DNA of 61,340 bases, filler included, from Hausera hauseri (lineage: Eukaryota): assembly GCA_046269625.1 (NCBI GenBank). It is 9 parts of 9 records of this genome, joined end to end, with 100 filler letters (N's around TTAATTAATTAA, not from the genome) between each part and the next. Parts side by side here need not be neighbours in the genome. Positions count along the whole stretch, not along the records: positions 48,427 to 56,924 come from JBJURY010622109.1; 8 more parts are not named here. One strand, written 5' to 3'. Positions 4,176 to 61,340 of the stretch are shown here, in pieces. Numbering within the stretch: position 1 is the stretch's first letter; every line of letters starts with the position of its first letter. A program made the position numbers and the translations under genes. A model generated the notes under the pieces. That model searched no databases. It saw only the letters and a program-made list of their open reading frames with translations, and was not told the DNA's origin.

Positions 4176-6394
4176 AAATACGATAGAAGAACTAAGAAAA
4201 ATATTATTATACTTTGCAATCAAGACAAACTCAACTCGAGAAAATGACTTAAATTGAGCTACGAGCTTGGCACAAAAAACATCTAGAAAACTTCCAAGAA
4301 AGTAAATTGGTCAAAATTGTTCGACAAAGTAGAAGACAAAAAGAATAGTAATAATGGACTCAGAGACATTATACGCAATTTAACGACAACGGATAATAAT
4401 AACCGAAAAAGCGAATCAAATTGGTTAGTCAGCCTATTTACAATAATGATGTTATAAAACAAATGAGTGCTGTCACTGTCTATGATTGTGACAGATTCAA
4501 GCTTGGACAAAAATATTTACTGATGGACTTAGAAGCATGTGAAGATGCTGACCACACAAATTTGAAACAAAGGAGAAAAGTTATTTCCTGTACCAACAAC
4601 AAGAATTGATATCTTTGGATGGCATGGAATGTGTGCTGAGACGATCTCGTTGTATTTTTTATTGTGGGCTAATGCACGGATACTCATCGATAATTAAACC
4701 AACAACCCCTCCAATTTAAATGAATTTGGAAAGATAATATTGTAAGCAAGCCCGAGAAACCGGAAGACTGAAATGGGATAGCATGGAATTAGAAACGCAA
4801 CCCGGAAAAATAATTAGAGTATATAAGATAGTAGCCGGAAGACTAGATATGCATAATGGGAACTGTGGCGGAACGGAATACGATACCGGAAAAACACTGG
4901 AAGCAAACGTAGTGGTAGTAGACTTTTACGATTCGGAAATGCGAGTTCAAAAAGTAATATTCCATAGCGTCACTAAGAATCAAAAATGTCACATTCAAGA
5001 CGAAACTTGTGCCTTCAAAAGTTCTGTCGTCATATGGGAACCGCCCACCGAAAAGGCCTGTAATTTTATTAAGATAAAGGAATTGAAATTTAATGAAACT
5101 GCCAAAAAACGATACGTAGATAAATCCAACATCAATTCAAGAGCACGTAAAGACGTATCAGGGCATTATACACCTACAATATTAATATCTGATCAACATG
5201 GATTGAAATTCATACAAAAGAAAATGATTTCATGATGTGAAGTAGTAATGTTTACCACTAACTACGAAGCGTTCTTCGTCGCAGAAACGGAGTTAAACGC
5301 GAAAACATACAATTTTGAAACAAAAGACATTCGAATCGAGGATTATCTAAAAACAGAGACGATTATTTTTATTATAAAGGGAAGGTTGGAATTAATGAAC
5401 TATACCACAGAATGATAATTAACGATTGTAAATTAGATGCGGAAATTATGTCGACAAAATTAGCTTTTATTTATGCGAACCCTGAGTAAGCATCACCAAT
5501 CATTTCCATGAGAGAAAAAATTTTTGGTCGTGTTACTGGTGATGTTCTACTAACTTATGAATGCGAGAAGAGAGATATACCAATTAATGTCGAGGAAAAA
5601 CGATGCATACAAGAACTTCCCGTGATCTATCAGAATACTCCGCGCTTAGCCATGCCTCTCTAGAGTATTGCTAGACAACGCAACACAACCTACAATATTG
5701 AAGGATTACAAAGCAAGTTTGGGTGAACCAATGTTTAGACGTAGTGAAACGGATTGGGTTAGCTTACCAAATGGAGGTATCACTGCCGCTCCAAATAAAT
5801 TAACTGGAACTAATTTAGCAAAAGGAATTACCGACGACAAGTTCCAGGATACATCTCAAAAGGGCATTTACAGACCAAGAGATCGAAGCTTTTCGACAAT
5901 TTCTCGCTTTTCCACGACAACGAACACATGAATTAAACCGGGCCATGGCGTCAGTAGTACACACCCGATATCAGGCTAAATGGGAATCCTTGCTTGGTGC
6001 GAACCACTACCAGCGAGTGACCACAGAAATACTGTACAAAATATGGGGAAGATTGTTAATTTTTGGACAAGCTGCATCTGGATTCTTAGCAATATATTTC
6101 CTGATACAGATGGTTAAGGCCGTCATCCAAGCAGTAATTAATGGATGCGAGATATTTACATTGACTGGATTTTCATGTAAACTATTAACTGCAATTATCA
6201 CACCGCTTGGCAAAATGCTTAAAGCGTATGAAGAGAATCGATGGAAAAATGACGTTGAACGCCATGCCGGCTATTATCATAAACGTCGAGCAAGACCCGT
6301 ATTTCGATTGATACACAAGGCTAAGAAACCAATGACACGAAGAAATAATTCAGATGATGATGAGCCTAAGGGAGGAGATGCAATTCTCAGGTAA
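4176..6394 (+). pseudogene. Retroelement env: chuvirus/herpes-gB-like (class III) fusion glycoprotein with upstream leader, degenerate
   Basis: Reconstructed across frameshifts: hydrophobic signal NWLVSLFTIMML/IKQMSA|VTVYDC, then a Cys-rich ectodomain (CVLRRSRCIFYCG, NGNCGG, CHIQDETC, VIWE, INDCKL, TYEC, RCIQELPV, KGIY), then a C-terminal hydrophobic region IWGRLLIFGQAASGFLAIYFLIQMVKAVIQAVINGCEIFTLTGFSCKLLTAII and a basic tail. The motif pattern matches chuvirus-type glycoproteins as I recall them. Confidence 0.8.
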
Positions 6395-7700
6395 AATAGA
6401 CACAAAATGTATTCCATAATTAGAGCACCCTTACCTATCATGCCACCAACGGCTGGAATATACAAAGATTGCAACAGAACATCTATGATGTCATACAGAT
6501 CAGCAATCTGCCAGAAACCCTTCAGCTATGAAGATCCTTATGAAGGAACAAAACAATATGCAGTATTTAAGAAAATGCAAATCACTATTCGATGACGAGC
6601 AGAGGACGACCACGGGATATTATATTCAGCGAGGATAGCTCGGAACATAGAAACAAGATCAACAGTATGGGGAACGCAAGGAACGAAATCTTTCCAAAAT
6701 CCAACAGTACAAGAACTATTAATCAGAAACAACGCAAATAACCTGGTAGTTAACGACTTATACCCTAACGAAGAATTGAAACAGCTGAGCAAAAATATTA
6801 TTTCATCACCAGAGATAACGATAAACGGGCATAAAATTTCTTCAGTTAAACGACCAAAAGACGTCTCGAGTTGTTACGGGTCAGTTATGGAAAGAAGGTC
6901 CTTCACAAAAGTTACTATTGAAGATTGGGAAGTCTATGCCTTAATTGACACCGGATCAGAAAAATTGTTTATCAAATTAGAATCAATACCGCCGGCATTA
7001 CGGAAACAACTGAAACCTGCATCGTTGTCAGACCCAGGCAGCATAGGAGCTTTTGGGCAAGAATCCAAACCAAAATTTAAATGGAGTCCTTTAGTTCAGT
7101 TAATGGGTCAAATCCTTAAACATGGGTTCGCTATAATAGATCAACTTACTGATGACGTAGTACTAGGATGTGACATATTGAAACAATTACCCAATATCGC
7201 AATAAACTTACAGACTGGAAAATTACTTAAACTTGGACCAGTAAAAGGGATTAAAACAATGAAAGAAAGGAAGCAAGGAGAAGTATGGATTCCCGAACCG
7301 AAATGCTAATTTACGCTCAAATCCGCGAAGAGGACGACCAACCAGTATATTTTGAGCCACAAGAGGACGTTAATCCAAATATTATACTTAGTAACATTTT
7401 GACAAGAGTAACGACAGGAAGAGTACCAGTCAGATTAGTAAACAATGCACCAACTCCTGTAAAGTTGTACGTCAATACCACATTGGGTCATGCTTATAAA
7501 GTATCGGCAATAACAATTGAATAAAAACCATATAAATATGCTGAAGTTCCACCTCATGTCAAAACAAAGTTTTCACCAGAGGCATATTGTCAATTTTACG
7601 AATTAATATGTAAATATAAGTCGATTATTGCCCAAAATAAAGAAGACATAGGTAGAGCGAAAACCTTAAGATTAACGATTCCGTTACACAAGAAACCTGG
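6395..7700 (+). mobile_element. Ty3/gypsy pol 5' part: linker, aspartic protease and pre-RT region (RT missing)
   Basis: YALIDTGSE catalytic motif, IGAFG flap and VVLGCDIL. Then a typical PR-RT linker (VPVRLVNN..PVKLYVNTTLG) and IIAQNKEDIGRAKTLRLTIP, after which the sequence becomes non-coding. Confidence 0.85.
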
Positions 7701-8869
7701 CTCCAATGATGAAATTGACTTGGAAGAGCAGAAGATCCCTAAATGGTACTGTAAGGTTCCACCTTACAACAAAATTGAAATAATCATTTAAAAATTTCTA
7801 ACAACAAAATATTAAAATTTATAAGCAAAGAATTTTTAATACTAAATTCGAAATTCAAAAATCGCAAAACTTAAAATAAATGTCTTAAACTTAAAATCGC
7901 AAATTTAAATAACAATTCAAAAAATTAAATTTCCCGACACATAACAAAATCCCCAACAAAAATCACATCGACTTAATATAAAAATTTAACAAAAGACAAA
8001 TCAAATAATCACGGATTCATACTAACAAAACAAAAAATAAAACATTTAGCAAGTGCCAAAGCGACCAGCACTTGCAAATAAAAAAATAATAAACAATCAA
8101 AATCTGTGGATTCAAGTCCATTTTGTTTGAATCCACAGTTTTCCAAAAGGCAGTTCTATTCAAAAGGAAAAAAAGTTATTGTCAAAAAATCTATGAACAC
8201 GACACAACAAACCAAAATGAAACCGATTGCCGAAATCCAAAAAAGATCACACGTTACCACGGGAGTTTCATCAATAGANNNNNNNNNNNNNNNNNNNNNN
8301 NNNNNNNNNNNNNNNNNNNNNNTTAATTAATTAANNNNNNNNNNNNNNNNNNNNNNNNNNNNNNNNNNNNNNNNNNNNCATGGAGAAGCTTGTGAATCAC
8401 TGAAAAACTAAAGTCTTAACAAAAGTCACTACACACGGAGGCGGGCAATGAGGAAGAGAATATGTATACTTTATCAGCGCATAAAATGGCAGTAAAGTCT
8501 TGCAGCCCTTCTCCCCCCACGACCAGTTGGGACTGTCCCGCATGTTCTATAATTTAGTTAATCCGTCACAAGGACCCTCGACACCTGTGTCTCATTCGCA
8601 CAGAATAAACCATGAGAGCGGAATCAATCTTATAGACAGGTATTGGACAGGTTGCCTCCATTAAGCCATCACTGCTGAAATGCACACTTTTAATTTATAC
8701 AAATTATTGCTTGTTGAAAAAAAAACATGTCTGTGCATGTTCACTTGTTTTTTGTGTTGACAAAATATCCCATAAATCAGTTGACAGTTATTATTATTAT
8801 TATTTATTATTAACCTTTATTTAACCAGGCTATGCCCATAAGGGAGACCTGAAAGCAACTTGACACACT

Positions 8870-22997: not shown

Positions 22998-24243
22998 AGT
23001 TTTTTTGAAAGGGTGAACTAAAACGACTATTAGAAGGAAAGGTAGTACGTCCGTCGTTCGTATTGGATTTGGAAGTGCAGACTGGAATGCACTTACGAGC
23101 TTGGTTTTAGAACCTTGCGCGGTAGATGCAAACTAGGGTTTTTTAGGAAAAACTGTTGTTATAAAATTTGCACCCTAGGCAGCACTTTTGAGCACTGGTG
23201 TTAAATATGCTGTGGTAATAACAGATCGACGAACGCGCAGGCGATGGTGAGCGGTTTCTAGACGCAGAACCAATGCGGTCAGTGACAAAATCCCCTCGGT
23301 GTAACAGAGAAAGTTCTTTTGATTTATTATTAATATTGTTGATTGTTGCGTGTAGTGCAGTATTTTCAGCACGTAGCTGATTAAGCTGTTGTTCTATTGA
23401 TGTGTTATTGGTTTGAATATCGTTAGCGGCAACTGCTGCCGAAACAATTGGTGTGGAATTTACGTGTAGAACGTCGTGTGTCCTATCGGCTAATTCGGCC
23501 AATTTCTCAAGAGGCGTGGAGTCCTCCACCACGGCAAGTAGGGCTCGGATTTGGATGGGTAACGCGTTAAGGAAGTAGTGGCGCAGTAGTTCTGGGTTTT
23601 GTTCTTTAGTGACGCCGAGGGTATGTAAATGTGCCAAAGAGGTGCGCAAGAATTCTGATGGTCGTTGCGTGCCTATAGCATTGTCATGGAAAAAACGTTG
23701 TATGATCGTGTCCATGGAGGGTTCTGTGATCTTAAGGACGGCGTTGAAGAGTTGGGGATATGGGTTAGGAAGTTCAGAGATTTCGATGATGTTGTGAATT
23801 CGTGTTTTGATGTTATTAGAAAGTAAGAAGAGAAGATTGTGTGCCTTGGTTAAAGAATCAGTAATATTATTTGCCTGTAGCCATAGTTGATAAAATTGCA
23901 ACCACGTTTTGCTAGAGGCTTGGTTGTCAATAAAGAATTCGGTGCACTGAGGGAAAGGAGCGGAAGAGGTCATAGGTGAGAGGTTGCTAGCAGGGGCAGG
24001 AATGGGTTTTTGAAGCAATATAACAGATTTTGGTTTCGTGGTGGTTTTATCTGTGATGTCTATGGTTGGTGATGAGTTCATGCCACCACGGGTATGGAAA
24101 TGTATGTGAAGACAAGTATGGTTTGAGAAAGATGGTAGATTTCCAGTGAGAGGTACTATAGATCCTTTATATGTGAGGTAAAAATTAGAAGAGTGAAGTG
24201 AGAAGGAGATAAAGTTACGAATGGTTGCAATATGTAAATGCAA
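22998..24243 (-). mobile_element. Ty3/gypsy gag (CsRn1/Kabuki-like) with an N-terminal ubiquitin-like extension and two C-terminal Zn knuckles
   Basis: Gag core (IGTQRPSEFL, FLNALPIQIRALL, LAELADR) and ICYYHSIFNTSAQKCCLGC. In frame past two stops is a second knuckle, VCIYRARF*NQARKCIPVC, then a CAAAAAAAC slippery-like site near 23000. Confidence 0.88.
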
Positions 24244-24439
24244 TGTAATGTACGTGTGTGTTTATTATTGAGAAAAAGAAAAATGAATAGGGAAGAGGTT
24301 ATGTGCCCGGGGGCGTGTTGTGGGGCTGACGCAAAAGGTGCCGTCTGGCCGACGGTGCAGGGTTAACGGCTGGGACCTCCGCCCCGCCGCGACGGGTCCA
24401 AAATTGCAGGGTGACCGACCTCCCCACCTGTATCGTTTT

Positions 24440-26549: not shown

Positions 26550-28059
26550 GCCTAACAGGAGACAGGAAGTGTCTGGGATGTATGAAAGTTGTTGAAAAGG
26601 TCAACGGATTCGCAAAGATCTTGATTAAGTTCTGGGTAGATAACTGAAAGATTTGGATGGAAAAAATTTGCGTTACAATCCGTTCTGGGGTGTGTTAATT
26701 TAATATAGGAATTAGTATAAGAGACAGGCAGGTAAGAGAAATCAGGTTCATTGGAGATTATTTCATTTATCGGACTATTCGCGTCATTTATCGACGGCTT
26801 GTAAACTTTTCTGAATTGCACATGAAAATGAATTCCCCGACGACGGAGTTTCATGCGCCCTATGTGTGATTGAATTTCAGACAACAGTTCGTACAGCTGA
26901 TCAGCCTGTGGTGTTCAGGTTAAGTCACTTGGCAGCATGCTGCAACAAACCTCACTGATCTAGGGAATATCTGTTAAGGAATCCCAATTGGTACCGTGCT
27001 GATCTTATGAAAGATCCGTTGGTAAAACTTGTTACGACTCCTTAAACAACATTTTGGGCAAACCTCTTCGTGATTAATTCATTGATTAAACTGATTTTGA
27101 ACCTTTTGTACATTTGAGATGAAATAAACCATTATCTTTTGTCCATTATCTTTTGTTGTAACATGTTAAGTCCCACATGATGGACATTCCTATTTTTCCT
27201 GTATTTTGTACAATTAATGTANNNNNNNNNNNNNNNNNNNNNNNNNNNNNNNNNNNNNNNNNNNNTTAATTAATTAANNNNNNNNNNNNNNNNNNNNNNN
27301 NNNNNNNNNNNNNNNNNNNNNCATATGTTGCAAGGTGTTGTTCCTGAAATTGCCAAAACTAAAATTCACTATGATGCTAAATATATTTTACAATAGATGT
27401 TTTATTCCTTAAATCTAAATCCTTATAACCATTATGTGCTCCTCACTCGGGGCACCAGAAAATGTTCTTGTATGCCAATGACACTTCGACGATTTTGTAT
27501 TTCCACATTCTCATTATCCGACTTCTTCGACATACTGAACATTTTATGGAAATTCTTATAGTAATCTGAGGGGTGAGTCCGTTTGGCGGTTTGGTAAGGT
27601 TACCCAGCGCCTATTCGATTTATTTAACATTGTTACTGGATTTTCCGTTAAGGCTTTTAGGAGTAGCTCCGATCTTTATATCTTCTATGATATTAACATT
27701 TTCGTTTGTAATATATGAGGGTTAAAATAAGGTATGGTATTAATTTCGATTCTGACCAGTGATATTCATCTATCTTAATCTTAACATGTTTATATCCCTA
27801 GTGGTTATGATATATTCCAACATAGGTTACCTAGTTAAGACTTGTGAATTCTTCGGTCCAATTATCCAATGATTTTTATCTACTTCGGAAGCATCAACAG
27901 TAATTTACGACTTGGTGATCTAGCCATTTCAAGAGACATTAATGGCGCTAGAGGTTCAATTCTAAGAACGACTTGCAAGGGAATTTGTCTTAGGAATGGG
28001 TTTAAATCTTTTGAAGATGGGTTCCAATTCTTAATTGAATGTTAAAAATGTGTGATTTA

Positions 28060-30661: not shown

Positions 30662-30934
30662 TGTTCAAATTATCTTTTTTAAACCTAATTTCGGTTATTT
30701 TATTAGTGGATTCACAGGCGACTTACAATTAATCAGAGAATAAAAACGCCCATCACGGGGGCTTAACATATATATCGAAGCAAGTGAAGTCAAAAATGAT
30801 TTCGATTAAAATCAATTAAAGTGTCTCCCAAATAAATTGTCTCGAATTAAAGTCGATTAAAGTTCGATTAAAATCGATTAAAGTGTCTCCCAATTAAAGT
30901 GTCTCGAATTAAAGTCGATTAAAGTGTCTCAACA
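30662..30934 (-). mobile_element. 3' LTR (~273 bp) with internal short tandem repeats; PPT at 30935-30949
   Basis: Minus strand: PPT gaaaagggggagaaa, then TGTTGAGAC...TTTGAACA (TGTT/AACA ends). U3 has repeated gagacactttaat / cgactttaat units, then a TATATAT box and AATAAA. Confidence 0.75.
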
Positions 30935-31758
30935 TTTCTCCCCCTTTTCAAAAGGATTCGGTCCTCCGGATCACTCTGGGTACTGACATCGATGAAGCTG
31001 AGGTTTCTTGGTTTAATCGTCAAAGTTGCGTCGTTCACTGGGTTCATCCAATGGCATAATCTTTGGGTTCGGTTGTCGTAGGTGTAAGAGAAGTGGTAGT
31101 ATACTGATGGTTGTCTGCAATATGGACATGAAATACCGTTTTGAAAAGTCATCTGTATAGCGTTTTCTGGGTCAATCGATTTGAGAGATTGAGATCGAAG
31201 TTTGTTGAAACAGGTTGCGCATAATTTGTGATTACATTGGAATTGAACTACTGTTATTCTTTCGGTAAGACATATAGTACATTCATATGTAGGAAACTGG
31301 TCATAGTAGTGAGTTTGTAATGTTGCCCATAGATCAGGAGGGGCTAGGTCGCATATAAGATCAATTGGACATTTACTGAAGACAGGAAACCAATCTTCTT
31401 GTAAAGATATTGGTAATGGTGGGCTATAGGAAATGATTGGTTTGGGTATTATTGTAGGTACAAGTACTGGTAACTCGGGTAATGGTCTAGTAATTTGTTC
31501 TGGATGATAGCGTGGGTGTGGTATTGAAGACGGTTGTCGTAAGAGAGTCATTACATTAATGTGAGGTAAAGGTGTTTGAAGAACAATCTGTGGTAGTCTG
31601 GTTATTATAGAGGGGTCAAATCTATGGATTGGGAATTCTATTCTAACTGATGCTTGTTGTTCAAGTCGGAAGTATCTTGTTGGAAGTATTTGTGGAATTG
31701 GTGTGTTAGTGATGGTAAGGAGAGCTCTTCTAGGATGGTGGAAGTATGAGTAAATAAA
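30919..31758 (-). CDS. Pro-rich plus C3HC4 RING-finger ORF at the 3' end of an LTR retrotransposon (5'-partial)
   Basis: The frame is open from the contig edge (31758) to TAA at 30919. RING: CTICLTERITVVQFQCNHKLCATCFNKL...SCPYCRQ. The C-terminal KRGRNVETL* is encoded by the PPT/LTR junction. Confidence 0.8.
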   Translation of the reverse strand, partial: FIYSYFHHPRRALLTITNTPIPQILPTRYFRLEQQASVRIEFPIHRFDPSIITRLPQIVLQTPLPHINVMTLLRQPSSIPHPRYHPEQITRPLPELPVLVPTIIPKPIISYSPPLPISLQEDWFPVFSKCPIDLICDLAPPDLWATLQTHYYDQFPTYECTICLTERITVVQFQCNHKLCATCFNKLRSQSLKSIDPENAIQMTFQNGISCPYCRQPSVYYHFSYTYDNRTQRLCHWMNPVNDATLTIKPRNLSFIDVSTQSDPEDRILLKRGRNVETL

Positions 31759-31858: not shown

Positions 31859-33140
31859 CATCTGGTGTTGGAACTGGAGTTAACGGAAAAGGGACAGGAC
31901 ATGTGTTATAGACATACGCAGCATTCGTCGCGTTGACGTACACAAAACATTGGTCGACAGGCTCCACAGTGGAAGTCGAAGATCCTTTGCAGTCAATTGT
32001 GGAGAATGTCTGTACATGTAGGCCATCCGAAGCACATGTCGCAATATAGGAAGAATCAATATTCGGAATACATGCACGCTGATTAAGAGTCACCTCTGTA
32101 CAGTCCTGACATTTCGAGTCGATGCATGCCTTCTGCTTGAACGAGGTATGCCGCTCAGCATGAGCTGTGGTTGCATCATATTTGAGCCCACATTGGTCCG
32201 TGCCTTTCTCCAACAATATGTAACCCTTCTCACCCCAATCGGCGCCCCATGAATTCTTTACAATCCAGTAGGGGGGATCATATGTGTCGTCAAAACCAAC
32301 AATTAGGACAGCATGGTCTTGCGAGATGCTTGTACAGTTTGTCATGATCCCACCTGTATAATAGTTCCATGAGTCTGCAGCAACTGCAATTGTAACTGGC
32401 CCATGCAGGAACACGAATGCTGCAATCTTATCCTCATCCTGTTCGAGTACAGAGTGTCCAGTGATGACTGCGCCAACAGGAAGTGAACTCAAGTTCTTTG
32501 GACATTGGGGTACGAAATTACCCCCACTGACGTATGGCAGACTGCTCTCACTAATAACTGCACCTTTCCGATACTTCACCAACCAATCAAACGCAGTTTC
32601 TTGATAACCGCTACTACAGCCATAATCCAGAATATCGCACGAGACAAGCTGCTGCTCAGACAACGATGTTAACGGATTGCCCGCAAGAAACCACTGACCC
32701 TCCATATTCCCGGTCGATCCAAACGCCCAGCAACTGCCACAGTTCCCTTGGTTCTTCACGGGAGTAACAGCACCCTTTTTGCGCCAATCGATCTTCTGTC
32801 CAGCAGCAGCGAATGCATCTTTCGCACTCAATCGAAGCACATTCTTCTTTCGCCGACTACTCCTTATATCCCTGGAAGAGCATTTGTGCATCCGCTCGAA
32901 TTCCTCCTCACTCCAGTCTGAAAATTTGTTAACACCAAACTTTGCAAGCGGGTTAGCTTTCGCGTGCTTCTCCATTCGTACCAGGTTCTTCTTGAAGTAC
33001 TCAAACCGCTTCAGTTCCTCCTCCTCACTCGCGTATTGCCGCTCGTACTCCTGCTTAAACCTTTCAAACATCATGTGATTGTCCACGGTGGCAACGACGT
33101 ATAAAATAACGAGTAACACAAATGCCAACTCAAGATACAT
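31859..33140 (-). CDS. Kinetoplastid-type cathepsin L-like cysteine peptidase (cruzipain/CPB family) with C-terminal extension, 3'-truncated
   Basis: Intronless. Signal peptide; I29 prodomain (ERFNIN-like, FGVNKFSD); QGNCGSCWAF, QDHAV and YWIVKNSWG catalytic motifs; Cys-rich extension (FKQKACIDSKCQDC..ACIP..TC..DC..QC..TC). Confidence 0.93.
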
Positions 33141-36100
33141 TATTACTCAAGGTTGTGTCGCGATACGTTCTCTCCGATGTGTATGTGTGATCCGCTATGA
33201 AATAAATTCGCACCTTGTATGGTGAAGCCCCCCTCTGAGCCTTAGCTTAAACAGACAATTATAACTTCAGTCCACTAATGAATAAAAAAGAAAACCACTT
33301 ACCCCTTCCTAGTAGATAAAAACAGTGAAAAATAGATTAATGTTATAAGACTCTTGTATCTGCTAATGCTTGAATGTCTGAGACAGCAATGAAATGTAAA
33401 CAGTGATAAAAAATGGGCAGGTCGTTAACGATATCATATCAAAAACAAAAAAAACCAAGAAAAATAAGTGAGTCACTTCATTGTGAACGTCAGCAACAAC
33501 AGAGAAAATGAGAGTGTGGACATCAGCAACTCCTCAGAGACGTGTTAGTCGAACATCGATGTACGCAATAAAGTAACGTACACGGCTAAACACGTCATCA
33601 TGCATCAAGAAATTGTGGATGAGACCTTTTCATCCCAACACAATCCACAGATTACTTCATCATTGCAAGCAATACAAGTCACAACTGCCTTGAAACCAAA
33701 ACGCAGTCAGACATACAAGTGACGTATATACAAGTGTATTTTGAACTTCTTCAAAGAACAGAAACTCCGCTCACAGCACTCATCTGTATTAGCCTCGTGC
33801 ATCTCACAGCGCCAGCAAATATTCCTTCCCCTCTCTGGGATAAGGGATGTGTTACGTCACACAGTGTAGTGCTTTCCATTTTAATGACCTGTTCACAATA
33901 TTCACATTAACACCCACAACACAGATGCAACCATAACATAAGGAAAAAATGGATGCACACATCCAACACAGTCACAGTAGCGCTATCGATGAAGTGTGTC
34001 CAACGCACCATCATGGTACGAATCTTTGTAATAATGCGTCTCAAAATCACATGCAACACGAAACCGCGCCCGGTACCAGCGGATTATTGGCTAACAATGC
34101 AGAGATACGCATCCCTTAGCGCACACAAAACAATACAACAAAACACCGCATTGTTCAAGAATCCCAGTACACTAATTCCACGTCAGAATGCTTGACGCTT
34201 GAGCTGGTGCGTTGCCTGGCAAAACCAGTACTCTTTAAAGAGATGCCACGTTGCCGAGCTCGACATCCAGAGCCATACATAAAAAATATCAGCTGCGCAA
34301 TTAGTATTAGTAATGATCGAGCAACAACAACGGGACGCGGTAATATAGTCGCTGTATGCGGTTGTGACACTGATGCTGGTGCCGTCCTGTTCCTCTTCAC
34401 TCTATGGGTTCTTATGAAATCTCGACTGCTGTTCGCAGCGATCGTGTGCCACACACTAACATAAATAAACATTTTTTTTTGTCTGGCCATGGCATCGTGA
34501 CATAAGGTTGTGTGTTGCATGTAGTAGCTTTCGTGCATAGATTGTCTCATGAATCAGTGTCAATTCACAGCTGAATGATGCGCGGTACATGTGCTGCAAC
34601 ACTTGCCAATACCATACTCTCTGTGCATTTGTCATTGTAGTTGTTGATCACTGACACGGAGAATACTGTATCAACAATAATCATGTGGACTGCATCGCTC
34701 TGTCGCATGAACGCTTGCGGACAGGTGATGGTACATGTGCAAATGTTCCAGGTCACCAATGTCCCAAGAGAAAACAACCAATCGCTTCAGTTAGCAGCAT
34801 CACAAGCGATAAACAGCTGCTGCGTCGTTGCGTTTGCTGCGCTGCTGTTGGCAGTTCATTTTGAGAATAAAACTCCGTCGCAAAGAAGAATTTGTCATCA
34901 CACGTTCCTCTGGGGTCACTATTGCAGACATCGGACCATGAGAGAAGACAAGATAGAACACACGCATAGCAATATAGAAAGACCTCTCAATAAACCATGA
35001 ACAAGTGAACAGGTTGTCAACATACATACAGCATTGTCTTAGTCCTTCATTAGGTTGAATGAATTAATGGACCACATACTAAACGCCGAAAGCAACATAT
35101 GAACAATAAACATATAATATTGGCTACGTACGTTACCGCACTGTATTCGCTATCGTAATTAATACGGCCAGGCAATATGCGAAAATGTGCATGTGTGAGA
35201 CAAAGGCGGGAGTGATTGAGTTTGTGGGAACACAAATGGTGCCAAAATAACACCTGCAATAATAGGCTTTGAAAAGGGTTTGAGCTCCGCGCAAAAAATG
35301 ATTACCATCAGTTCAGGTTGGTAAGAATCAGCCCTACACACACATGATATTTCCATGCCTTGTATGAATGGTACAATCTTGTTATGATCATCGGACAGAT
35401 TTTCTTGTGAGGAAACGCTCACCAAGCAAAATGCTTGTTGAACAGGAGCTTTCAACTGCTGTGTTGGCTCGTTGATCGTGACGCCGCACTGAACAGAGAA
35501 CGACAGGGTAATCTTCACCACAGTAACAACATACTTCGACATGGCGTCGGCGAGTATGTTACTAACAACCAGACGGTGTCACAATCACCCTCACAGGCGC
35601 ACGCATGCGTCGTAATAAAACCCGAATGAAAGCACCATAATCATCTCAAGTTTATGAAAAGCATTTCAAAGCATGAAAATAAACCGATGGACTTGAATTC
35701 ATTGACATACTACTCGATGGCGCCCAAAAGGTTCAACAGACGACGAACATTGCAACGTGCACAATTGGAGCCATTAAAATAATTCTCTAACACAGGCGAA
35801 AACAAAGGCACACATGTCACATTGGATGCACAATAGTCGCTTGACTTTCTCCCGCTGACGTGAATGCGCCAGAAGCCTTCACAAATTATGAACGCAAACG
35901 TTGTCAAGACGCATCAACAACCCTCATAACCATACGCTTGATCGCCATCATCCAATCCAACTAATCAAAGGCAGCGAGGATCCAAGCTCCAAGCCGCATC
36001 GATGATCATAACGTTCCATGAAGTAGATAAACAACAATTACAGAACATGGAATACAACCATGGATCGTAACTGTGACAACCGAAGGCAATTGAAACTTTG

Positions 36101-42260: not shown

Positions 42261-42789
42261 TTTGCGACGGCGCACAACGTCTTGATATCCGCCTCTGGCC
42301 GGCGCATTAATGAAAGCTTTTTTTCACCCATTGAAAGAGTTGTCGTTGAATTAATGAAACGGACTGCTCCCACACGAGAGGCCTCCACGCAGCGGGGTCG
42401 GGCAGCATTCTTTGGGCGCTGGCGAATTCGTCGAACCTGGTTCTGGGATGGGTTCGCTTCACAGCTGTGGTGATGTTGAGCTCAACTCTGGGCTCTTAAT
42501 CATGGAGGGCGCTTCGGCGTCGATGGAGACCGTGACATGCCCGCACGCCTCAGAGTTTACAGATTGCGTGCTTCAACATACGCGGACTGGCGAATACTGA
42601 AAAGCGTGCCGCGCTAGTCGCTGAAATGTCCATGCGTGCGATTGATATTTTGATAATTGGAGGGACGAGGACAACGAAGAAACTAACAAAACAACGCTTG
42701 AAATCACACAGAAATGAATACTTTGACATGACCATCAGTAGAGATAGCCGATACTAAGGTGTAGGAATCATTACTCGCTCGGAGCTCAG

Positions 42790-43935
42790 TGAGCCTGAAG
42801 GTCTTCGAGGATGGCATGTGACTGGCATTCAAACAATATCTGAGCGCCTTCGGCAATGCCAACTAACTGGACATGGACAGAAGTTCATGTTAATTGGCAC
42901 GTACGTCCCCACGAATGTTAAATTGACAGTATGGAAACGGAATCTGATTGAAGTAGAACAGTTGCTCAGCACGTCATCAGCCGCTCTAATTATGGGGGAT
43001 TTTAATGCCCGCATAGCGCTCAATAACTGCCCGAAGGTACAGCATACCAACCAGCGGGGACAGTTACTGACTGACAAGATAACGGAGCTCGGACTAATTC
43101 TTGGGAGCAATGCGTGCAGACAACAAAAGAAGCGATGCCTTTAGTTCTGCGCAGGGTATATGGAATGTTCTACTATAGACCATGCCATTTTCACACTAAA
43201 CATTATTCAATTTAGTCAAAAAACTAGATACCAGACATTCTACACCATTTCTATAGATCATAGAGCGGTAATCACGACTCTCTATGTTCAGAAACTGCAC
43301 GCTGGTAAATCGCATCCTCCGGGACTCTCCCGGAAAGAAGCCTTTCCAACAAGACTAGAACCAACATTGGAAATTGACAACACATGGGAGCGACTTCTGC
43401 AACAAGCGCTAAAGACACAGAATAATCCGGAAGGACAGAAAATAAAAAGAGGTTTCACCCGTATATATCGGAGAGCACATGGATGCTTATTCGCAAACTA
43501 AGTTTTGGACGCAAATATAGGAAAAACGTTCAAGAGAAACAGGTTTGTAATAAACTGAGACAGCGGATACGGGCATCGATAACAGCAGACCGTCGCAATT
43601 GGTTGGATACTCTAGCTGCTGAACCAGAGAAACATTTAATACACGGAAGCACTCACCTTGCATTCAAAACACTCAGACAATTGTATAATAAGCGAGAGCA
43701 GCAATAGTTGGCTACGGAGGAAGATCTCGCGAACCTTAGGAAGCATTTCACCGATTTATTTACGCCAGGCGAATGGGCTGGCACAATTGACACTCAACCG
43801 CAACCGGGGCTGAGTACAGAGCAATGCTCTGGATGCCCATGGGAGGAGCGGTGGATAGACAACGGTCAATCCACCATGGTGATTTATTCCGACGGCAGCG
43901 AACACAATCAAGTAGCCGGTTTTGGATTAGCTTGC
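42790..43935 (+). mobile_element. Degenerate non-LTR retrotransposon: AP endonuclease, linker and an RNase H-like start
   Basis: LIGTYVPT, LIMGDFNARI, TNQRGQLL, STIDHAIF and IDHRAV (APE motifs); helical linker ending LRKHFTDLF; then VIYSDGS..AGFG (RNase HI-like N-terminal motif). Confidence 0.75.
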
Positions 43936-44289
43936 AAATATACACGCCTACAAGAAAGAGCCGAAATAACTTCTTTAGGACAGAACCTCATAACTTGTTT
44001 GCGAATGGATATCAAACGAGAACGGATGCTCAACACATTGGAAGTTACGACATTATCAACACCGACAACGATTAATTTGGATAATCCTCTTCAGGAGGAA
44101 GACGCTTCTATCGAGAACAGAACTAGATTATCAGAAAAGACAACAATACTTGGACTTAGCGACCGCATTGAACAGAGGACGGGCCTCTTTGTTTCTTCCA
44201 TTCTTTGGAAGAACAACAACTCTCAGGGACACAAAACTTATTAGAACTAGTTCCATTATATTGCGTTGCATCTTGTTTTATATTTTAAG

Positions 44290-48426: not shown

Positions 48427-49490
48427 TCGGACTGGCTGGAGGAGAATCTTTCCCATAGATTGACTACAGAGTATGAAAAATGTCCTCAGAACCTCCTCTA
48501 CCCTTAATGCCAGAGCTATCCTGTAATATTTGACTGAAAAAACAAGAATCTCTTGAGAGAAGTGTCCAAAAAAGATGTAATCTACTCAAAAAGGTGTGAG
48601 CCATGTTAAACTGCTCAACAAAAAAAAAGAGTGCAAAGTGCAAAGATAAGTCACGGTTTAGCAAATGACTGATTTTACAACGTTATATACTCCCAATAGG
48701 CTAGTATGTTGGGTTTTCTGTCTGATTCAGCAACCAAGTTTAAAGACTACCTCAGTGGTTTTCACGACTCCAGGCTGTCTTTGTTTAGCTCGCCAACATT
48801 TAAACTGGTCAAACCTGGTCTGAATTATTCCACACTAAACAGATACGTCTTAAAACACATTTTGTGGTTTAGAAAAACAACTTTTACTGTGTTGTTGGAA
48901 ATATGGTGTCTAATCAATGTAGAATTAGCTTGAGCCTTTTTGTAGCTTCCACAATTCATTTGATTTCAGGCTTGAAAATAGGTAACTTCAAAACATTTCC
49001 AAACTTACAAACTAGGGGTGGGTGTTAAAGATTATGATAAAAAACATCAAATTATGTAAAATTATATCGATTAATCTGTACAAAATACTTTTATAAACTC
49101 ATTTGTTCCTTGCTAATGCTAACTGATTTGCATATGCTGTATGTAGCTAGCCACGTAGCAATATAATATTCATTTTATATTTTCAGACAAACTAAACACT
49201 AGTTTATTTTATGTATCGATCTGTAATACACAGATTTTGCTAATGTTAATGTTTCATACTAGCAAAAATTATTAGCATTAGCTACTAGTTTGACACGTAC
49301 CAAACTAGCAAAAGAAATGTTTAACAATCCTGTCACAATCTAAATTTCAGACAAAATTAATGAATAGATCATATTGTTATACCATAAAACAAATTTTCAC
49401 CTTACAAATGCTAATTTTTTGCAACAAGCAAGAAAAGTAGTTAGCCAGCTAATTAAGATTTTATCCAAACATAAATATTTTCAGAATAAA
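48427..49490. other. Non-coding, probably teleost-derived DNA
   Basis: Repeated gctaatgctaac / ttagcattagct / tagctagc motifs, common in teleost repeats. No ORF with recognisable motifs. Confidence 0.4.
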
Positions 49491-50625
49491 TTTGATATCA
49501 AGATGGGTGCGCCAGGTATTATGGACCGAAGATTGAAGATGATGGTTGTCGGAATTTTGGAAACTCCCTGAATACAGATGCATAGCGAGATGTATGAGAA
49601 AGGATCGACGAGACACGGGATGCACGGTGGGACGACAATGAATTAGTCAGCAATACACCAATATGATAAATGATTGCTTCCCTGAACGTTTTATGACAAT
49701 GGTTATATCAACTGTAATGGCATTGCGGTTTACAGAGAATTCTATTTATATCGATACCATGCCTAACTTGACTGTAGAATTCAGCATGAAATTACCGATT
49801 TCAGGTTGTCTCAATCTAGTCGAATTATGGAAGGTTGTTTCCCTTGGAAAAGTCAGGCCAAAGATGAACCGATTGGGAAAAGAGGGGCCCACTGCAACAC
49901 ATGTTTTTATGATATTAATTGACGGGCAATAATGATAATTATGTTTATGAGCCGTTTGTGAAGTCAAGTAAACAACGAGTAACTTGTACGTTACTAAAAT
50001 TGTATATGTATAATTATATGTATTGATTTGCATCAAATCGCGTAGATAGGATTTATGGTTTCCGTTCAGTGATGATTGTATGCCGTTTTGTTCAATTGTG
50101 GTTAATCTTTGATCTATCATGAAAGATTGACTCTAGACAAATACTGAGCAAAGGGATGCGAGTTAAAAATTGTTTTATACACTTTGGACATCGGAGAAGG
50201 TTGCATTCATTTGAAAATGACTTACCGAAATCTGTTATGAGTAGTGGGATTTATTTGATTCCCGTGATGATCCATAAACAATTATTCGAACATTCCCAGG
50301 TGAGGCCTAACAGTGTGATGCCGCCTAGGAACCAACATCCTTTAGAGAATCGTATTCTAAGGAAACGACAAGAACCCTATCGAAAACCTGAAATGAACTT
50401 GTTGTAAACGACTCATATGGAATATTTTTGAATTTTTTCGTTTCTTCTTCAACCGACATTCCATCAAAATAGTATCTCTAGTTTGTTGTTTATATTATGC
50501 CAAGGTACAATGTATTCCTTTGACTATCGTGCAGGTAAGGAATGAATTCATGGGATCGACCAAATAATAGTGAATGGGTCATTAGAAATAAATGCAAAAT
50601 TGAGATATGAGTATTGGATTCCCAT

Positions 50626-50763
50626 TTTAATTAATGAGATAAAATACATTTCAATTAATGAGATAAAATACATTTTAATTAATGAGATAAAATATATTTC
50701 AATTAATGAGATAAAATACATTTTAATTAATGAGATAAAATACATTTTAATTAATGAGATAAA
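50626..50763. repeat. 24-bp minisatellite, ~5.7 copies
   Basis: Unit (t/c)aattaatgagataaaata(c/t)attt. It produces the INEIKYI(S/L) repeats in the ORF track. Confidence 0.95.
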
Positions 50764-51164
50764 GACATCAGATTGTGAGATTCCTTGGATCACTGCAGTA
50801 TATTGTTTAATTTATTATGGTTGGTAAAATGGAAGTTTGGGAGAGCGGATATGAATTATGGCCTATATGTACTTCGATTTCCGATTGCATGGTGCCTTTG
50901 TGTTTATATTTCTATGCAGTCACATGGGATTATGAACGTCAATCGTTCAAACTGGACTTGACATATGTTTCCAGAGAATACGTAACTTATTATCACATTC
51001 CAACAATTAAAGGCGCAGGTATCTCGTATACCGAACCGCCGCCGGACTCCCCCTTCAGAGTTTCTATGGATCTTTATATGTTACTAATATTGACAGAGCA
51101 CTTGGATATACCTGGATATATTTTGATCAAATTAGAACCTAACATCATATCATTAGTAACATCA

Positions 51165-52704
51165 ATAGTACTCTGGTAATTGGTGTTACTAATCTCGGCA
51201 CGTCTTGATATATTACTGGAAGCTCTTGTATACACATCTTTTCCCACATTAGTAGGTACATCTTTCTTTTCACATTCATAGGTCAATAAGATCTCTCCGG
51301 TTACTCGTCCAAAAACACCTTCCTTCATTGGAATTATTGGTGATGCCAACTCGGGATTGGCGTATGTCAGGGCCAACTTAGTTCTCATGATTTCCAAGTC
51401 CAATTTACAGTCATTTGTTATCATTTTGTGGTATAACTCGGCTATCCCGGCTTGTCCTTTATAGTAGAAATAGTCGCCTCTGTTCTTCAAATAGTCTTTA
51501 ATCCGGATGTACTGAGTCTCGATTTTGAACGTTCTGGCATTTATTTCTGTCTCGGCCACGAAAAATGCTTCATATTTGTGGCATACATTACGACGTCGCA
51601 TCTGGAGAGCATAGCTTTCTTTACAAATTTTAATCCATAAGTATCAAAAATCAGTATCGTAGGTGTGGACTGTTCGGCTACATCCTCTTGTGTTTCAGAG
51701 TTAGTTTCCATGCTACTTATGTATCGTTTTCCTGTCGTCTCGTTGAACTTAAGTTCTTTAATTCTGATAAAGTTGCAATCGGTCTTGGTTGGGGGCTCCC
51801 AAATCACTACGGAACTTCTAAACGGGCATGTGCCATCCTAAATGTGGCACTTGTGGTTTTCAGTGTAAAGTTTAGTAACGCTATGAAACATCACTTTCTG
51901 TATACACATTTTGGTTTTGTAAAAATCCACTATTACGATGTTTGACTCTAATCCTTTTTCGGTATCGTATTCCTCACCGTAACAATGTCCGGTGTGCATA
52001 TCCAATCTTCCTGCTGCCACTTTATACACTCTGATTATTTTCCCTTACTGCATTTCCATTTCCATACCGTCCCATTTTATTCTCCCCGTTTCTCTAGCTT
52101 GCTTACAATGCTGTCTCTCTAAATTCATCGGAATTAGTGGGGTTGTTGGCTTAATTATTGACGAGTGTTTATGTACCAGTCTACAATGGAAAATGCTGCG
52201 AAATCGCCGCAGCATATATTCTACTCCGTCAAAGGTAAGTAGTTCGCGTTGTTGATATAATATATAACTTTTCTCTTTTGTTTCTAATCAGTGGGGCCTC
52301 GCATCTTCGCACATTTCCAAGTCCATTAACGAATATTTTTGGCCAAGTCTAAATTTGTCACAGTCGTATACTGTAACTGCGCCCATTTGCCTTATTAACA
52401 TCATCATGGTCAAAAAGTTGATTAGCCAGTTTGATTCGTTTCCTCTGCGATTTCCAGCCACATTTCGCAGCAGTTCTCCAAGTCTATTGTTATCAAAGAA
52501 GGATCCACTCTGATGTTCTTCTTCTTTTTCGAATAACTTAGACCGGTTCACTTCTTGAGATAGTTTCCTGGCGGCCCTTCTTGCTAAGGTAGTGACGTTG
52601 TTGAATTCATTTTCTCGGTTTGGGTTAATTTTAATGGCCAGATATAGCAATACTTTTCTCAATTCTTCTATGGTATTTTCTACCATAATTTTTTCGATTA
52701 TCAT
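51165..52704 (-). pseudogene. Second copy of the chuvirus/gB-like env glycoprotein (N-terminal two-thirds) with leader
   Basis: NTIEELRK...NWLINFLTMMMLIRQMGA|VTVYDCDKFRLGQKYSLMDLEMCEDA; AGRLDMHTGHC; IWEPPT..CNFI; TNDCKL; TYEC; CIQELPVIY..TRVLL. Collinear with 4176-5670. Confidence 0.85.
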
Positions 52705-55700
52705 TTCATCGCTTAAGGTACTTCTGGATCATTTACGCCGAAGGCCCCTCATAGCCTTTGCGGCGTTCGTTATGGTCTTCTCTTTCTCATCCAATACATC
52801 ACCGCTGAGGCTAGAGTGGTTTACTATTAGGATCAAATTTTTCATAAGTTCGTTTAGTTCTTCGTTGTCCGTACTGAAAGTCGGTATGGACATTTGCCTC
52901 AACTGTGATCAAATCTCCATTATAATCGATTTCCTCTCGTATTTTCCGAGGTCTACAGACTGAACTCTTCTGTTTTGTTACAGCAGGTACACTGCCGTTG
53001 AGGGGTACTAAATTCTTATCGTATTGTTCATTATCTTCGTCTGTCTGCAGGTACTCCAAATATACTGTTGTATCTCGGACTCCTATTATTCGTCCTACCT
53101 GCTGTTCGGCTTTAGACTTCCTTATGGCCTCTTCTTTTGTTTCATCGATAGTGATGGTTACCACTAACCGGTTTATTTCGCCTGGAATAATTCCAACCTC
53201 TATCAATAATTCTGACTTGTCTAGTATCCTTCCTCTAAAATAAAGTCTATAGCTCAACTCATGGGCATATCCATTGTCCTTTATCCATAGTAATACATCC
53301 TTTACAAGGGAGCGCGTAGTGAATTTTTGTTCCTTCTCGTCCATCCAATCTGATATTATCTTTACCAGGATCCTTTCCTCAACTTTTACCTTTTAGATTT
53401 TCGCATATTCCTTGAGTAAAAGCTTAGGTACCGTACTAAAAGTCGTACCTTCGTTAGTTAATTTAGTTAAAGTAGGAACCAGAGGTCTTAACTAACTTTC
53501 AGTGAGGTTCACTTCAATTAATTGAATTAAATCCTTCTCGATTTGTACTGGATTCAGAAGCATTCCTACATTGAACCGTTGGTATGGAGAGTATATCTCC
53601 ATCTCCTCCAATTATATTCGGGTTATCGGATTCTTGACGATCATTGCGTCTAAATAGGCCTCCCAATCTGGTTCATTTTCATTATCCGGCAGTTGATAGC
53701 TCCTCGACGGTGTATCAGTCGACCCGTTCACACCTGCGGTCCATGTAGTTTTTATGAGGTCTTGTAGTTTTTGTTGAATTTGGACCACTTTTGTCGTTCG
53801 GAATCATCGTCCATTAGCGGATGTTTGGTTGAGCAGTGTTAACAACGAACACAATTCTTCGGGTGAAATTAACCCTTTTTCTTGGTAGTTTCTTAATTCA
53901 GACGTGACATTTCTTTGCCATCTTTGAAAGAATTGGGATTTATCAGCCTTTTCTGCTTCTGTAAGGGCGTACTTATTTTTATAAACTTCGAGTTTTCCAG
54001 TTAATTCGTCTAATCTCATCGCTCTTTGTTTCGTCTTAATGCAAGTTTCTTCGACTTGCTGTATCTACTGCAACAATTGTCTTAGCTTTTCGTCACTAAT
54101 TTCTGCCATTTCCGCCATCAATAATGCTAATTCGTACATCTCGTTGGTGCTGTTTGAATCTGGATCGATCGCAGCTAATAATTTTTTTACAAATTTAATC
54201 TCCTCGAAATTAAGGTGACGGTCATTCTTTATTTTAATTAGTTCGGTAGGAAGTCTTTGATCCGTTCCACCTCTCCATTCTTGGGGACAATGTAGGAACT
54301 TAACCGCTTCTTCCACGATTAACCGGTATTCTGGACAACAGTCTAAAGTTTTAAGATCTCGGACTGAGACTTCTTCGATGGGTTTGGCTGTCAGCCAGCG
54401 TATTCCCTTCAGGCGGAAATCTCTAAATTGCGGATAGAAATCGCAAATCGCTTTTCACTTTCGCATGAAGTTTGTTTCTTCGATCATCTTATATATATCA
54501 TCTAGTATCATCATCTCCTGTTTCTTTTCCATAAAATTCAATTGACGCAGTGCCTCAAATTGGGTTCGGATGTCAATTTCTGCTTTCATCGTATCTAGAT
54601 TTCGGGCGTCTTCTTCCAACTGCTTCTTTACTGTAGGTTCGCTCTCCGGAAATTCATTCTTCTGTCTGTTTATTAATTCGCTTAACCTTGTTATTACTTT
54701 AAACCATTAGTTCAATTGATTAGCGATTTCTGACTTCGCTAAGATTGCTTTGTTTCACATTTTGCGAGCATCGTCTAGTTCATCATCTGGACCTTTAATA
54801 AAATCGATGATCCGGCAGGCATAGTCAAACTCATCCTTATATTCATCGAACTCGTGGATACAAGCCATAATTATTTTGGGTGTTTCTTCGCTATTGATGT
54901 ACATAATTCTGTTCCTTAGACCGTATATCTGCGACCGTTTTTCGGCTTCAATTCTAATACGATTTTCCAGACTAGTATATTGCTTGGAGACTGTCGAAGC
55001 GACCTTTATCATTTCCATTAAGGGTGGAATATCTATCGGATCTATGCCCAATATCTCTAGGTCATCTGCATCTCGTTCCTTGACCGGCTTCCTTTTTAGT
55101 CGTTTGACTATTGCAAATCTAATTTCATTCATGACACGCTCCAAATTACGCACTACTGTTTTTAATTTCGGGTTGGCTTCTAATGTAGCTAATAGCGACT
55201 GAGCTTGGTTGATTCTAGCTTCAATATCTTGAGTAGTTTTATCCCACGTCTCCGGGATTTTCGTCTCAGTTTTAGTCCACCGTTCTAATTCGCGTTTTCA
55301 CTGAACTAGTGTTTCTTTTGCCACTTCTTTAGGCTGATCTAGGTCTATAGCTTCGCTTAGTTTCCCTTCACTATATAGCTTCATCTTTTTATGTAACCTC
55401 TCTACAAACTGTTGTTCCTTGCCCGAAATATCCACTTGCTCACTCATTGCTTTAAGTTTCTCCAGATTCTGTTGCACCACCTCTGGATTGAAGCAATTTA
55501 TCCTCATTTTTTAATTCATCGGCGTTTTTCCAAGAGCGCCTGATTTTCCATTTTTTAGGGTCAAGTTTCCCTTCTTGCTTTATTTCCTCTTCGCTAGTAG
55601 GTAAGGGACATATGTCGTTTATCTCATTTATAAATGTGGTCGGCTCATCCATTTCGCTTGGTGTAGCTAGATTAATTTCCCAAATGTTCGAGGCGCAATG

Positions 55701-56312
55701 TGTGTCGCTTTCCAACACGATTTCGGTTTCTGTCTTCGTGCTCGACTTCTCCTTGAACATTGGGGATCTCGAACGATCCTTGCGTTTTCGTCTCAATGAT
55801 GGACTACGGCCTCTATTCTTGGTAATTTTAAGTATAAGTGGTTCTAGAAATTCTTCTTTTTCGTCGGCTTCTGCCTTCTTGGTTACCATTTTTATAGTAT
55901 ACTCGGGTTCTATGTCTGAGTCTACTTTATTCGGAGCGTCAGATTTTCCTATTTCATTTAAATTTTTATTTAATGTAGGACTGTTCTTCTTCCGTGCCAT
56001 GTCAATCAGCCTTGACGGTTCAATGGAACGTTCATATTCCGTTTCTGGTTCACGCAGACCGTGGTAAACTTTTAATAGTCGTAACTTGTGTTCATACGCG
56101 TTTCTGGCCACTAAAACTTTAGGGTCTTTAGTATCAGGTTGGGCCTTTAAGAACCGTCTCAAATCTTGTATCGCAATAATCATGCCCGTGTCTCTACGGA
56201 TACCGTAAATTGCTTCTAAATTTTCGTTTTTAATTACATTAGTTTTACTAGGTACGACAAATGAAACACTTCGTGGGTTTGGACAGGATTTCACTATGTG
56301 CCATTCCTGTCC
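52705..56312 (-). pseudogene. ~1200-codon insert between Gag NC and env: low-complexity and helical/coiled-coil segments plus a ubiquitin-like domain (53152-53374)
   Basis: A chain of minus-strand ORF pieces that begins in frame with the gag knuckle and ends in frame with the env leader (ELNELMKNL...GLRRK*SRSTLSDEMIIEK). No protease, RT or integrase motif is visible in it. Confidence 0.6.
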
Positions 56313-56924
56313 TCATGTATAACAGATTAAGTTGCCATTTCTCCCGATCCTTTGTCGGCCATCCTCGTTCACTGGGAATTTCGATTTGCTTGGATTTCTA
56401 TTGCAGTCCTGCCGCACCGGGGCTTGCCTACTATACGCATTTTGGCGGTTATCATAACTCCGGCTGTTATTCTGTCGATTAAAATTTTTGGAGCCATCTA
56501 GGCGTTTATTCGTATGATAGTTTGATTTATTTCGACTATTATCAAAATTCTGATTGCCGTATCGTTCATTCCTGCGATCATAATTACTGTTCTTTTTCCG
56601 ATCTCCATAACTCCTATTAAATCGTCTATCATTCCGATTATTCCGATTCCTATCGTTTCGGTCACTTCGATCATTGTCTCTATCATTTCTGTCGCTGTTT
56701 CTGGCATATCTATCCAATGCCATTTCTAAGTCCTGAGCCAAATGCAATGTCCAATCAAAATTCTCCGGGCGTGCTAGAATCAGTTGCTTTACTATGTCTT
56801 TGGACAAAATACCATTTATTAACTGCGTCATCATCATGACGTCTAAATCTGGAGGACTTGCTTTTTCTGCGGCTTTGCGTCCTGCTTCATTTTTAGACTT
56901 TGCTATGTTCGCTATCCTTAAGAT
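56270..56924 (-). mobile_element. LTR-retrotransposon gag C-half (CA-CTD, R/N/D-rich linker, CCHC knuckle)
   Basis: QLINGILSKDIVKQLILARPENFDWTLHLAQDLE; an RNDR-rich linker; ICYT*GQEWHIVKSC, which is CX2CX4HX4C with one Cys mutated to TGA. Confidence 0.85.
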
Positions 56925-60199: not shown

Positions 60200-61340
60200 G
60201 GAACCAACAAACAATGCGACCTCTTCTTTGCCATTTTTGTTAATATACACAGCGGTCGGCGTGGTTCTGAGAAGCTCATAAGGACTTTTTCCGGCTCGAG
60301 TGAGCCTCAAAGATGTGCCTTTCTTGGCTGTCGGGTAGTGTACATAAACCAAATTTCCTTATTCTAGATCATGTGGTTTAGCCTTCTTGTCGTATTACTT
60401 TTTAAATTGTTATTGATACCCTTAAGACAATTCTTTTGCTACTTCCCAGCACTTTTGTCGTCTAGTCCGTAACACCTCGACAAAAATTTGTTTTAGATTT
60501 TCCGTCTTCGTTGTATATGGTACCATTCCTAAGTCCGTGGGTAGTATAGCTTCTCTAATATAGAGCGTAAAAATGGTGTAAATCCTGCTGAATGCTGTGG
60601 TGTAGTGTTTATGGCAAATTGCATGCCTTCTAAAAATCGATCCTAATCCTTCTGATTTTTTGCAACTGCTGTTGATAAGATTCATACGATTGTTGCCTTC
60701 ATTCGTTAGAGCATTCTGTTACATTTAGGGTGATAAGAGTCGTGGTTAACCGTTCAATTTCAAATATCTTGGTAATTTTATCGAATAGTTCACTTCTAAA
60801 GTTACTTCCTCGGTCTGTTGGAATCTGTTCGGAAGGGCCATATCTACAGATAATTTTTCTCACGACGGCTTCTGCAAGAGTCAGGGCCTTTTGGACCACT
60901 AATGCCATCAGTTCGACAAAATGAGTTAATCGATCTATACATGTCGAAATGTATTTATTGTCCTTATGAGTTGTTGGTAACGGTCCTACAATATCCATGG
61001 ACATCGCTTGCATTGCTCTGTCCGGCACGTTTATCGGTTTAAGTTCGGCAATGTAATTCCTCGCTTTCCTCCCTTTGGTTGCGCATACTTCGCAAGCACT
61101 TACCCAATTCTTCACATCGATGTATATGCATGGCCCGTAATATATTTTATATTCTTTTAATGTCTTCTTCCACGACGTGTGTCCCGCTAAGTATATGTCA
61201 TGTTCGGGAGTTAGCACTTCTGTCCGTAATCCCTTTAGCATGACTACTAATTTTTGTGCCTTCTGTTTATAATACAGTACATTTTCATGGCTTGTGCCCC
61301 CCATTACGCAGCACTTATGACCATGTCTCTCTAAATATTT
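60200..61340 (-). mobile_element. Ty3/gypsy integrase (HHCC, DDE core, eroded GPY region), degenerate
   Basis: HDIYLAGH..CEVC, MDIVGPLP, CIDRLTHFV and TDRGSNFRSELF. After a frameshift, GMLERM; later SPYELLRTTP. Confidence 0.92.

Follow-up and report, generated by a model that had tools for sequence, protein, structure and literature searches.

The window, that is, the whole analyzed stretch of 61,340 nucleotides from the Hausera hauseri assembly GCA_046269625.1, is composed of nine parts joined by identical N-flanked spacers at positions 4076, 8279, 15808, 21194, 27222, 31759, 48327, and 56925. One of these parts, a contig of 8.5 kb at 48427–56924, carries on its minus strand a retroelement copy (copy A) in which the 3’ part of gag is followed by a middle region, a segment that is likely ubiquitin-like, a helical/hydrophobic region, and a partial env (Table 1). 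Gag of copy A runs off the contig end upstream, at 56924, its 5’ part being absent, and its CCHC-type knuckle was recognized by pattern and gave no Pfam match. The env part matched the Monjiviricetes_fusion profile in the Pfam search with E-values of 6.6e-07 and 0.016 and ends about 60% through this profile; it is interrupted by stops (four in the 452-codon env frame) and by a frame change. Behind env, no transmembrane part, protease, or pol was found on this contig; a 24-bp tandem repeat is seen at 50600–50787, just downstream of the truncated env. Gag, middle region, and env each lie in a different frame, and copy A, truncated and stop-ridden, is dead. The ubiquitin-like segment is located ~970 residues past the Gag knuckle and ~240 residues ahead of the hydrophobic stretch that is probably the env signal or anchor. 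The peptide quoted in the preliminary description was recovered exactly, in a stop-free frame.

Table 1. Coordinates of the element features in the window.
Feature	Position	Strand	Description
gag, 3’ part	55455..56921	-	basic, Asn/Arg-rich; a single, broken CCHC-type knuckle near 56324
middle region	53393..55597	-	long, charged, apparently helical; 11 in-frame stops; unassigned
stop-free frame, 193 aa	52811..53392	-	domain and ~110-aa unassigned linker; last stop-free piece of the 928-codon middle frame (11 stops)
likely ubiquitin-like (beta-grasp) domain, 74 aa	53153..53374	-	peptide read in the stop-free frame
helical-looking region ending in hydrophobic stretch	52372..52899	-	hydrophobic from ~52428, mean hydropathy 1.46; common to copies A and B from ~52677
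gB-type env ectodomain, N-terminal part	51077..52371	-	Pfam Monjiviricetes_fusion (PF24664), profile positions 63–391 of 653
decayed relative, copy B	4176..8278	+	env, then retroviral aspartyl protease; other contig

A second, likewise decayed member of the family, copy B, begins downstream of the slot of the ubiquitin-like domain and extends further in the 3’ direction, with env including its C-terminal part (Monjiviricetes_fusion, E 2.8e-18 and 6.9e-12), a stretch of ~100–250 aa without assignment, and then the protease (RVP, E 1.3e-04); no reverse transcriptase was recognizable on its contig. Copies A and B share 68% DNA identity over 1490 columns, the likeness ending near 51206. As copy A has the Gag knuckle ahead of env and copy B has RVP behind it, the family order, joined across the two copies, is gag, accessory region, env, protease, thus gag-env-pol. 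The element is likely a decayed gag-env-pol type of the Ty3/gypsy group that resembles the planarian Burro elements. The preliminary description had placed the domain inside a Gag-Env polyprotein; env is indeed encoded downstream, and in working copies Gag, accessory region, and Env would form one polyprotein, an arrangement deduced across the stops and frame changes that separate gag, middle region, and env in copy A.

Further features lie elsewhere in the window. The contig at 15908–21193 consists of a diverged satellite with a unit of ~178–181 bp in at least 29 copies. By eye, we noted a gypsy gag-protease-RT at 21294–24261 (minus strand), a non-LTR endonuclease-like region at 42758–44241 (plus strand), and an integrase frame at 60702–61340 (minus strand), as well as what we take to be a vertebrate-like Ig domain at 14331–14723 and an intronless gene, presumably cathepsin L-like and kinetoplastid in look, at 31860–33146. 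Judged by eye, the nine contigs appear to stem from more than one organism, the latter two features being examples. Adjoining a gypsy element, a stop-interrupted and apparently intronless NRPS-like tail (24770–26600, minus strand) comprises an adenylation C-terminus, a carrier (PP-binding, E 5.7e-14), and a terminal reductase (NAD_binding_4, E 6.6e-30). An intronless RING-finger frame with a Pro-rich start (30922–31758, minus strand; RING_XB3-XBAT31, E 4e-08) lies beside short tandem repeats and could be mobile-element cargo.

Conservation of the segment among related copies had been named as a check in the preliminary description. Related contigs were taken from one public run (X1), which is possibly the source itself and hence not independent; 11,128 contigs fell on the whole copy A contig and 367 on 53141–53392, mostly less than 95% alike, numbers that do not give copy number. 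At 53141–53392, synonymous changes made up 28 of the 40 differences shown (47 in all) versus 31% expected (p 4e-07), 28 of the 40 fell on third positions, and the rough N/S ratio was 0.19. When the same differences were read in the other two minus-strand frames, 4 and 11 of the 40 were synonymous. No indel row was listed for this interval among the 367 contigs, and none of the 11 covered core positions had a listed amino-acid change, the latter being weak evidence. Two single-contig joints bypass part of the domain and may represent diverged or deleted copies. The segment is thus a coding part of the element family under purifying selection, a result that demonstrates coding and not ubiquitin-like identity. 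For the whole contig (40 differences shown of 1415 in total), the 36 rows scored comprised 30 non-synonymous and 6 synonymous differences, 4 rows having been omitted on account of broken codons; this set is not like-for-like with that of the domain and probably records the decay of copy A itself, since nearly all contigs differ from copy A at these positions.

The likeness to ubiquitin was approached by profiles, by alignment, and by a protein language model. In the Pfam search named in the preliminary description, the 74-mer matched two families at E ≤ 0.12, both of them ubiquitin-fold families, but below their curated cut-offs: UBX (E 0.018; 15.6–16.0 bits, cut-off 21) and Rad60-SLD_2 (PF13881; E 0.12; 12.9–13.4 bits, cut-off 23). 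No profile match of the 74-mer exceeded a curated cut-off, PF11976 gave no match, and the UBX and Rad60-SLD_2 matches disappeared when the domain was scanned within longer read-throughs. The end-to-end likeness claimed earlier stands at a modest level, with 16 identities to ubiquitin (~20% identity): when the domain was aligned over its full length to viral ubiquitin with BLOSUM45, its score was equalled by 8 of 3000 shuffles and by none of 439 natural decoys, and with BLOSUM62 by 129 of 3000 shuffles and 3 of 439 decoys. By contrast, the local match to ubiquitin that the preliminary description had stressed is at chance level, as 692 of 3000 shuffles scored as well in local pairwise alignment and 940 of 5000 were as good against an HMM built from 78 viral ubiquitins; a search for diverse ubiquitin-like proteins to obtain a better profile yielded near-ubiquitin sequences only. 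In the ESM Atlas, every cluster shown that carries a Pfam family belongs to ubiquitin, Rad60-SLD, or TUG-UBL (cosine 0.87–0.92), and the ten best family matches all belong to one family or clan, an outcome also obtained with about one third of shuffled proteins; these two observations count as a single source of evidence. Shared-feature counts in the Atlas were 140–163, below the 170 typical for true family members. Hydrophobic residues occupy 14 of 17 core positions and G47 is kept; as 122 of 1000 shuffles equal this pattern, it is not significant.

Structure prediction, likewise a check named at the outset, gave a divided answer. From the single sequence, AlphaFold returned a helix-helix-three-strand arrangement (pLDDT 63, pTM 0.44) without a beta-grasp and, in Foldseek, without a PDB match at E ≤ 0.001; models made without an alignment are frequently wrong. 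When 17 ubiquitins were supplied as alignment, five models with pLDDT 79.5–83.5 were obtained, the best of which (83.5) follows the beta-grasp order and finds ubiquitin, SUMO, and UBX as structural matches, with a TM of up to 0.86 to ubiquitin variants; this model is circular and lacks a control, and thus indicates compatibility only. Pestivirus polyproteins were also among the fold matches of this model. The predicted second strand of the domain is devoid of the hydrophobics corresponding to I13 and L15 of ubiquitin.

Direct homologues were not retrieved. In word-indexed protein searches, neither the 193-aa frame nor the domain region of the 928-aa read-through nor the env read-through found a homologue, phmmer against 1.84 billion protein representatives gave 0 matches at E ≤ 0.001, viral and metagenome contigs contained no homologue of the domain region or env, and phmmer against the PDB produced one unrelated match (E 1.7). 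The linker beside the domain in the 193-aa frame had no Pfam match below E 0.1. Since env was missed as well, we attribute the blank homologue searches to database coverage rather than to absence.

The closest precedent is Burro. According to the sections considered of Arkhipova and Yushenova (2019, PMC6431247), Burro/GYPSM1 are giant gypsy-like LTR retrotransposons of planarians with an ORF of 4,873 aa, with MATH, Smc/AIR1, BCL2-like, BIR, RING, dUTPase, and ankyrin modules, and with a Ubi2/SUMO-like domain that precedes an env read in the same frame; this cargo was suggested to interfere with host ubiquitination and apoptosis. As far as that published description goes, on which the likeness rests rather than on a direct alignment with the Burro domain, the two share a Gag with CCHC knuckle, a long accessory region, a ubiquitin/SUMO-like domain (a likely one in copy A), a further domain, env, and protease in this order, an env related to mononegavirus fusion proteins, and high apparent copy diversity with decayed fragments. 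Relative to the same description, and with respect to features that an 8.5-kb contig can show (unlike overall size, LTRs, dUTPase, BIR, and ankyrins), copy A differs in having one broken knuckle only, in the part of gag present, and in its best Pfam matches being UBX and Rad60-SLD_2 rather than PF11976; the position ahead of env agrees, but the domain match is sub-threshold and the frame is broken in copy A. In the slot where Burro carries Smc and MATH, the middle region of copy A, neither was detected with Pfam (E ≤ 10), and in the BCL2-like slot, the helical-looking region, no such domain was found by Pfam (E ≤ 10) or PDB phmmer, tools that fall short of the sensitivity of HHpred, the method of the published analysis. 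Because MATH and BCL2 were not detected, the element is filed as Burro-like, not as Burro.

A second group of relatives is formed by the GAG-ENV-POL errantiviruses with HSV/gB-type env from Platyhelminthes, Bryozoa, and Nematoda (Chary and Hayashi, eLife 2026, PMC13524379), with which, in the parts of that report considered, the element shares a gB-type env between gag and pol. Env of copy A ends domain I-II, by eye, with a motif run like that of six Schmidtea rows (class C1a), and the motif 'YATN' occurs in two rows of the supplementary table, both Schmidtea, the comparison covering a portion of the table and, beyond it, a search by motif. From these env motifs, a flatworm host appears probable. 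The first Schmidtea element spans ~14.8 kb in that source, close to the Burro ORF of 4,873 aa, for which reason the Schmidtea rows are probably Burro. In contrast to the present element, ubiquitin is not mentioned in the main text or the seven text supplements of that report. With the reverse transcriptase absent from the element parts in the window, no clade placement relative to these viruses is given.

Given that profiles, language model, and end-to-end alignment point the same way, that the segment is under purifying selection, and that Burro provides a precedent, the segment likely adopts a beta-grasp fold and represents an integral, non-conjugatable ubiquitin-like domain, much of the weight of this assignment coming from Burro. 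Chance resemblance, with the segment being a conserved but unremarkable alpha/beta part of the polyprotein that has another fold, is unlikely in our estimation: it would account for the single-sequence model without beta-grasp or PDB match, for local and HMM scores at chance, for sub-threshold profiles, and for an Atlas score of 0.9 that shuffled proteins attain in 4–10 per 100, but not readily for the convergence of three partly independent methods on one fold class for an identical stretch of 74 residues, or for a related element type carrying a ubiquitin-like domain in about the same slot. The integral, non-cleavable character proposed in the preliminary description is therefore retained as likely, short of any curated profile cut-off, and the claimed lack of a C-terminal diglycine holds, as no GG occurs at or after the domain and the sole GG of the 928-residue frame is far upstream. 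A ubiquitin fold without diglycine can neither be conjugated nor be cut as a ubiquitin precursor.

At the surface, the positions of L8, I44, K48, and K63 of ubiquitin are occupied by I, Y, R, and P, respectively; equivalents of R42, G47, and V70 are retained and those of H68, Q62, and E64 lost, with a C-terminal register uncertain by one or two residues. Judged from these residues, the combination of a ubiquitin-like buried pattern with a divergent surface would better suit an integral interaction module of the UBL/UBX type than a ubiquitin stand-in. We therefore favor, at a probability of roughly one half, a genuine integral ubiquitin-like domain in a predicted Gag-accessory-Env polyprotein that would probably serve as a host-directed cytosolic binding module, rather than modify other proteins or act as the late domain of Gag. 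The cytosolic position is predicted because the domain precedes the first hydrophobic signal/anchor of env. As a non-conjugatable protein-binding module, the domain may act as a ubiquitin/SUMO mimic or decoy aimed at host ubiquitin-system proteins, and it could either be freed by the protease of the element or be retained on the Env leader. Binding to the host ubiquitin system is favored because it is in keeping with the other cargo of Burro; no function for the Burro domain was found in the literature searched.

A role internal to the element, as a folding or spacer unit or as an aid to protease processing without a host partner, appears rather unlikely to us. A surface patch diverged from that of ubiquitin, most buried positions being still hydrophobic, would agree with such a role, as would the weak sign that covered core positions lack listed changes. 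Integral ubiquitin-like domains adjoin proteases in other polyproteins, which also speaks for it. Against it, the domain has no LRLRGG-type cleavage tail, such as pestivirus ubiquitin inserts carry, and the MATH, BIR, BCL2-like, and RING cargo of Burro points to the host ubiquitin and apoptosis systems.

The preliminary description had further drawn on ESCRT-dependent budding of fusions of ubiquitin to Gag to suggest a role in budding, besides sorting or proteasome interaction. The budding idea survives as an analogy only, and we regard as quite improbable that the domain is a built-in late domain, on a cytosolic Env leader or on an uncleaved Gag precursor, that recruits ubiquitin-binding ESCRT proteins. 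In the relevant sections of the published work on engineered Gag-ubiquitin fusions (Zhadina and Bieniasz 2010, PMC2958808), ubiquitin replaces late domains, L8 and I44 are needed, and lysines, including K48 and K63, are dispensable. Common to these fusions and to the present element would be a non-conjugatable ubiquitin fold within a retroelement structural precursor; in that work, however, true ubiquitin sits directly on Gag, whereas here a domain of low identity that reads I/Y at the two critical positions lies far from Gag. The absence of PTAP/PSAP, PPxY, and YPxL motifs from the three read-throughs examined, the retained equivalents of R42, G47, and V70, and the predicted cytosolic location ahead of the env anchor are consistent with a late-domain function; the missing 5’ part of gag, however, could hide a late motif. 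The altered L8/I44 patch, the loss of H68, Q62, and E64, and the long distance from the Gag knuckle argue against it, and at such divergence recognition by ubiquitin-specific domains would be unlikely. Least probable is a variant according to which the domain acts as a non-removable ubiquitin mimic on a cytosolic Env leader that is membrane-tethered via an internal signal anchor and recruits ESCRT, by analogy to the foamy-virus Env leader; if true, this would be a natural instance, in a retrovirus-like element of an invertebrate, of late-domain motifs being replaced by a ubiquitin fold.

Returning to the host-directed binding module, the gag-accessory-UBL-env architecture has been published before for planarian Burro, as far as the description considered goes, a precedent that the preliminary description does not mention, and copy A is a further, decayed case with selection evidence. 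If real, the domain extends the ubiquitin/SUMO-like cargo of Burro to another, divergent gag-env-pol family, the added value being the evidence of purifying selection on the domain. Small and stop-free, it would also lend itself to structural and pull-down studies of the interplay between enveloped retrotransposons and the host ubiquitin machinery.
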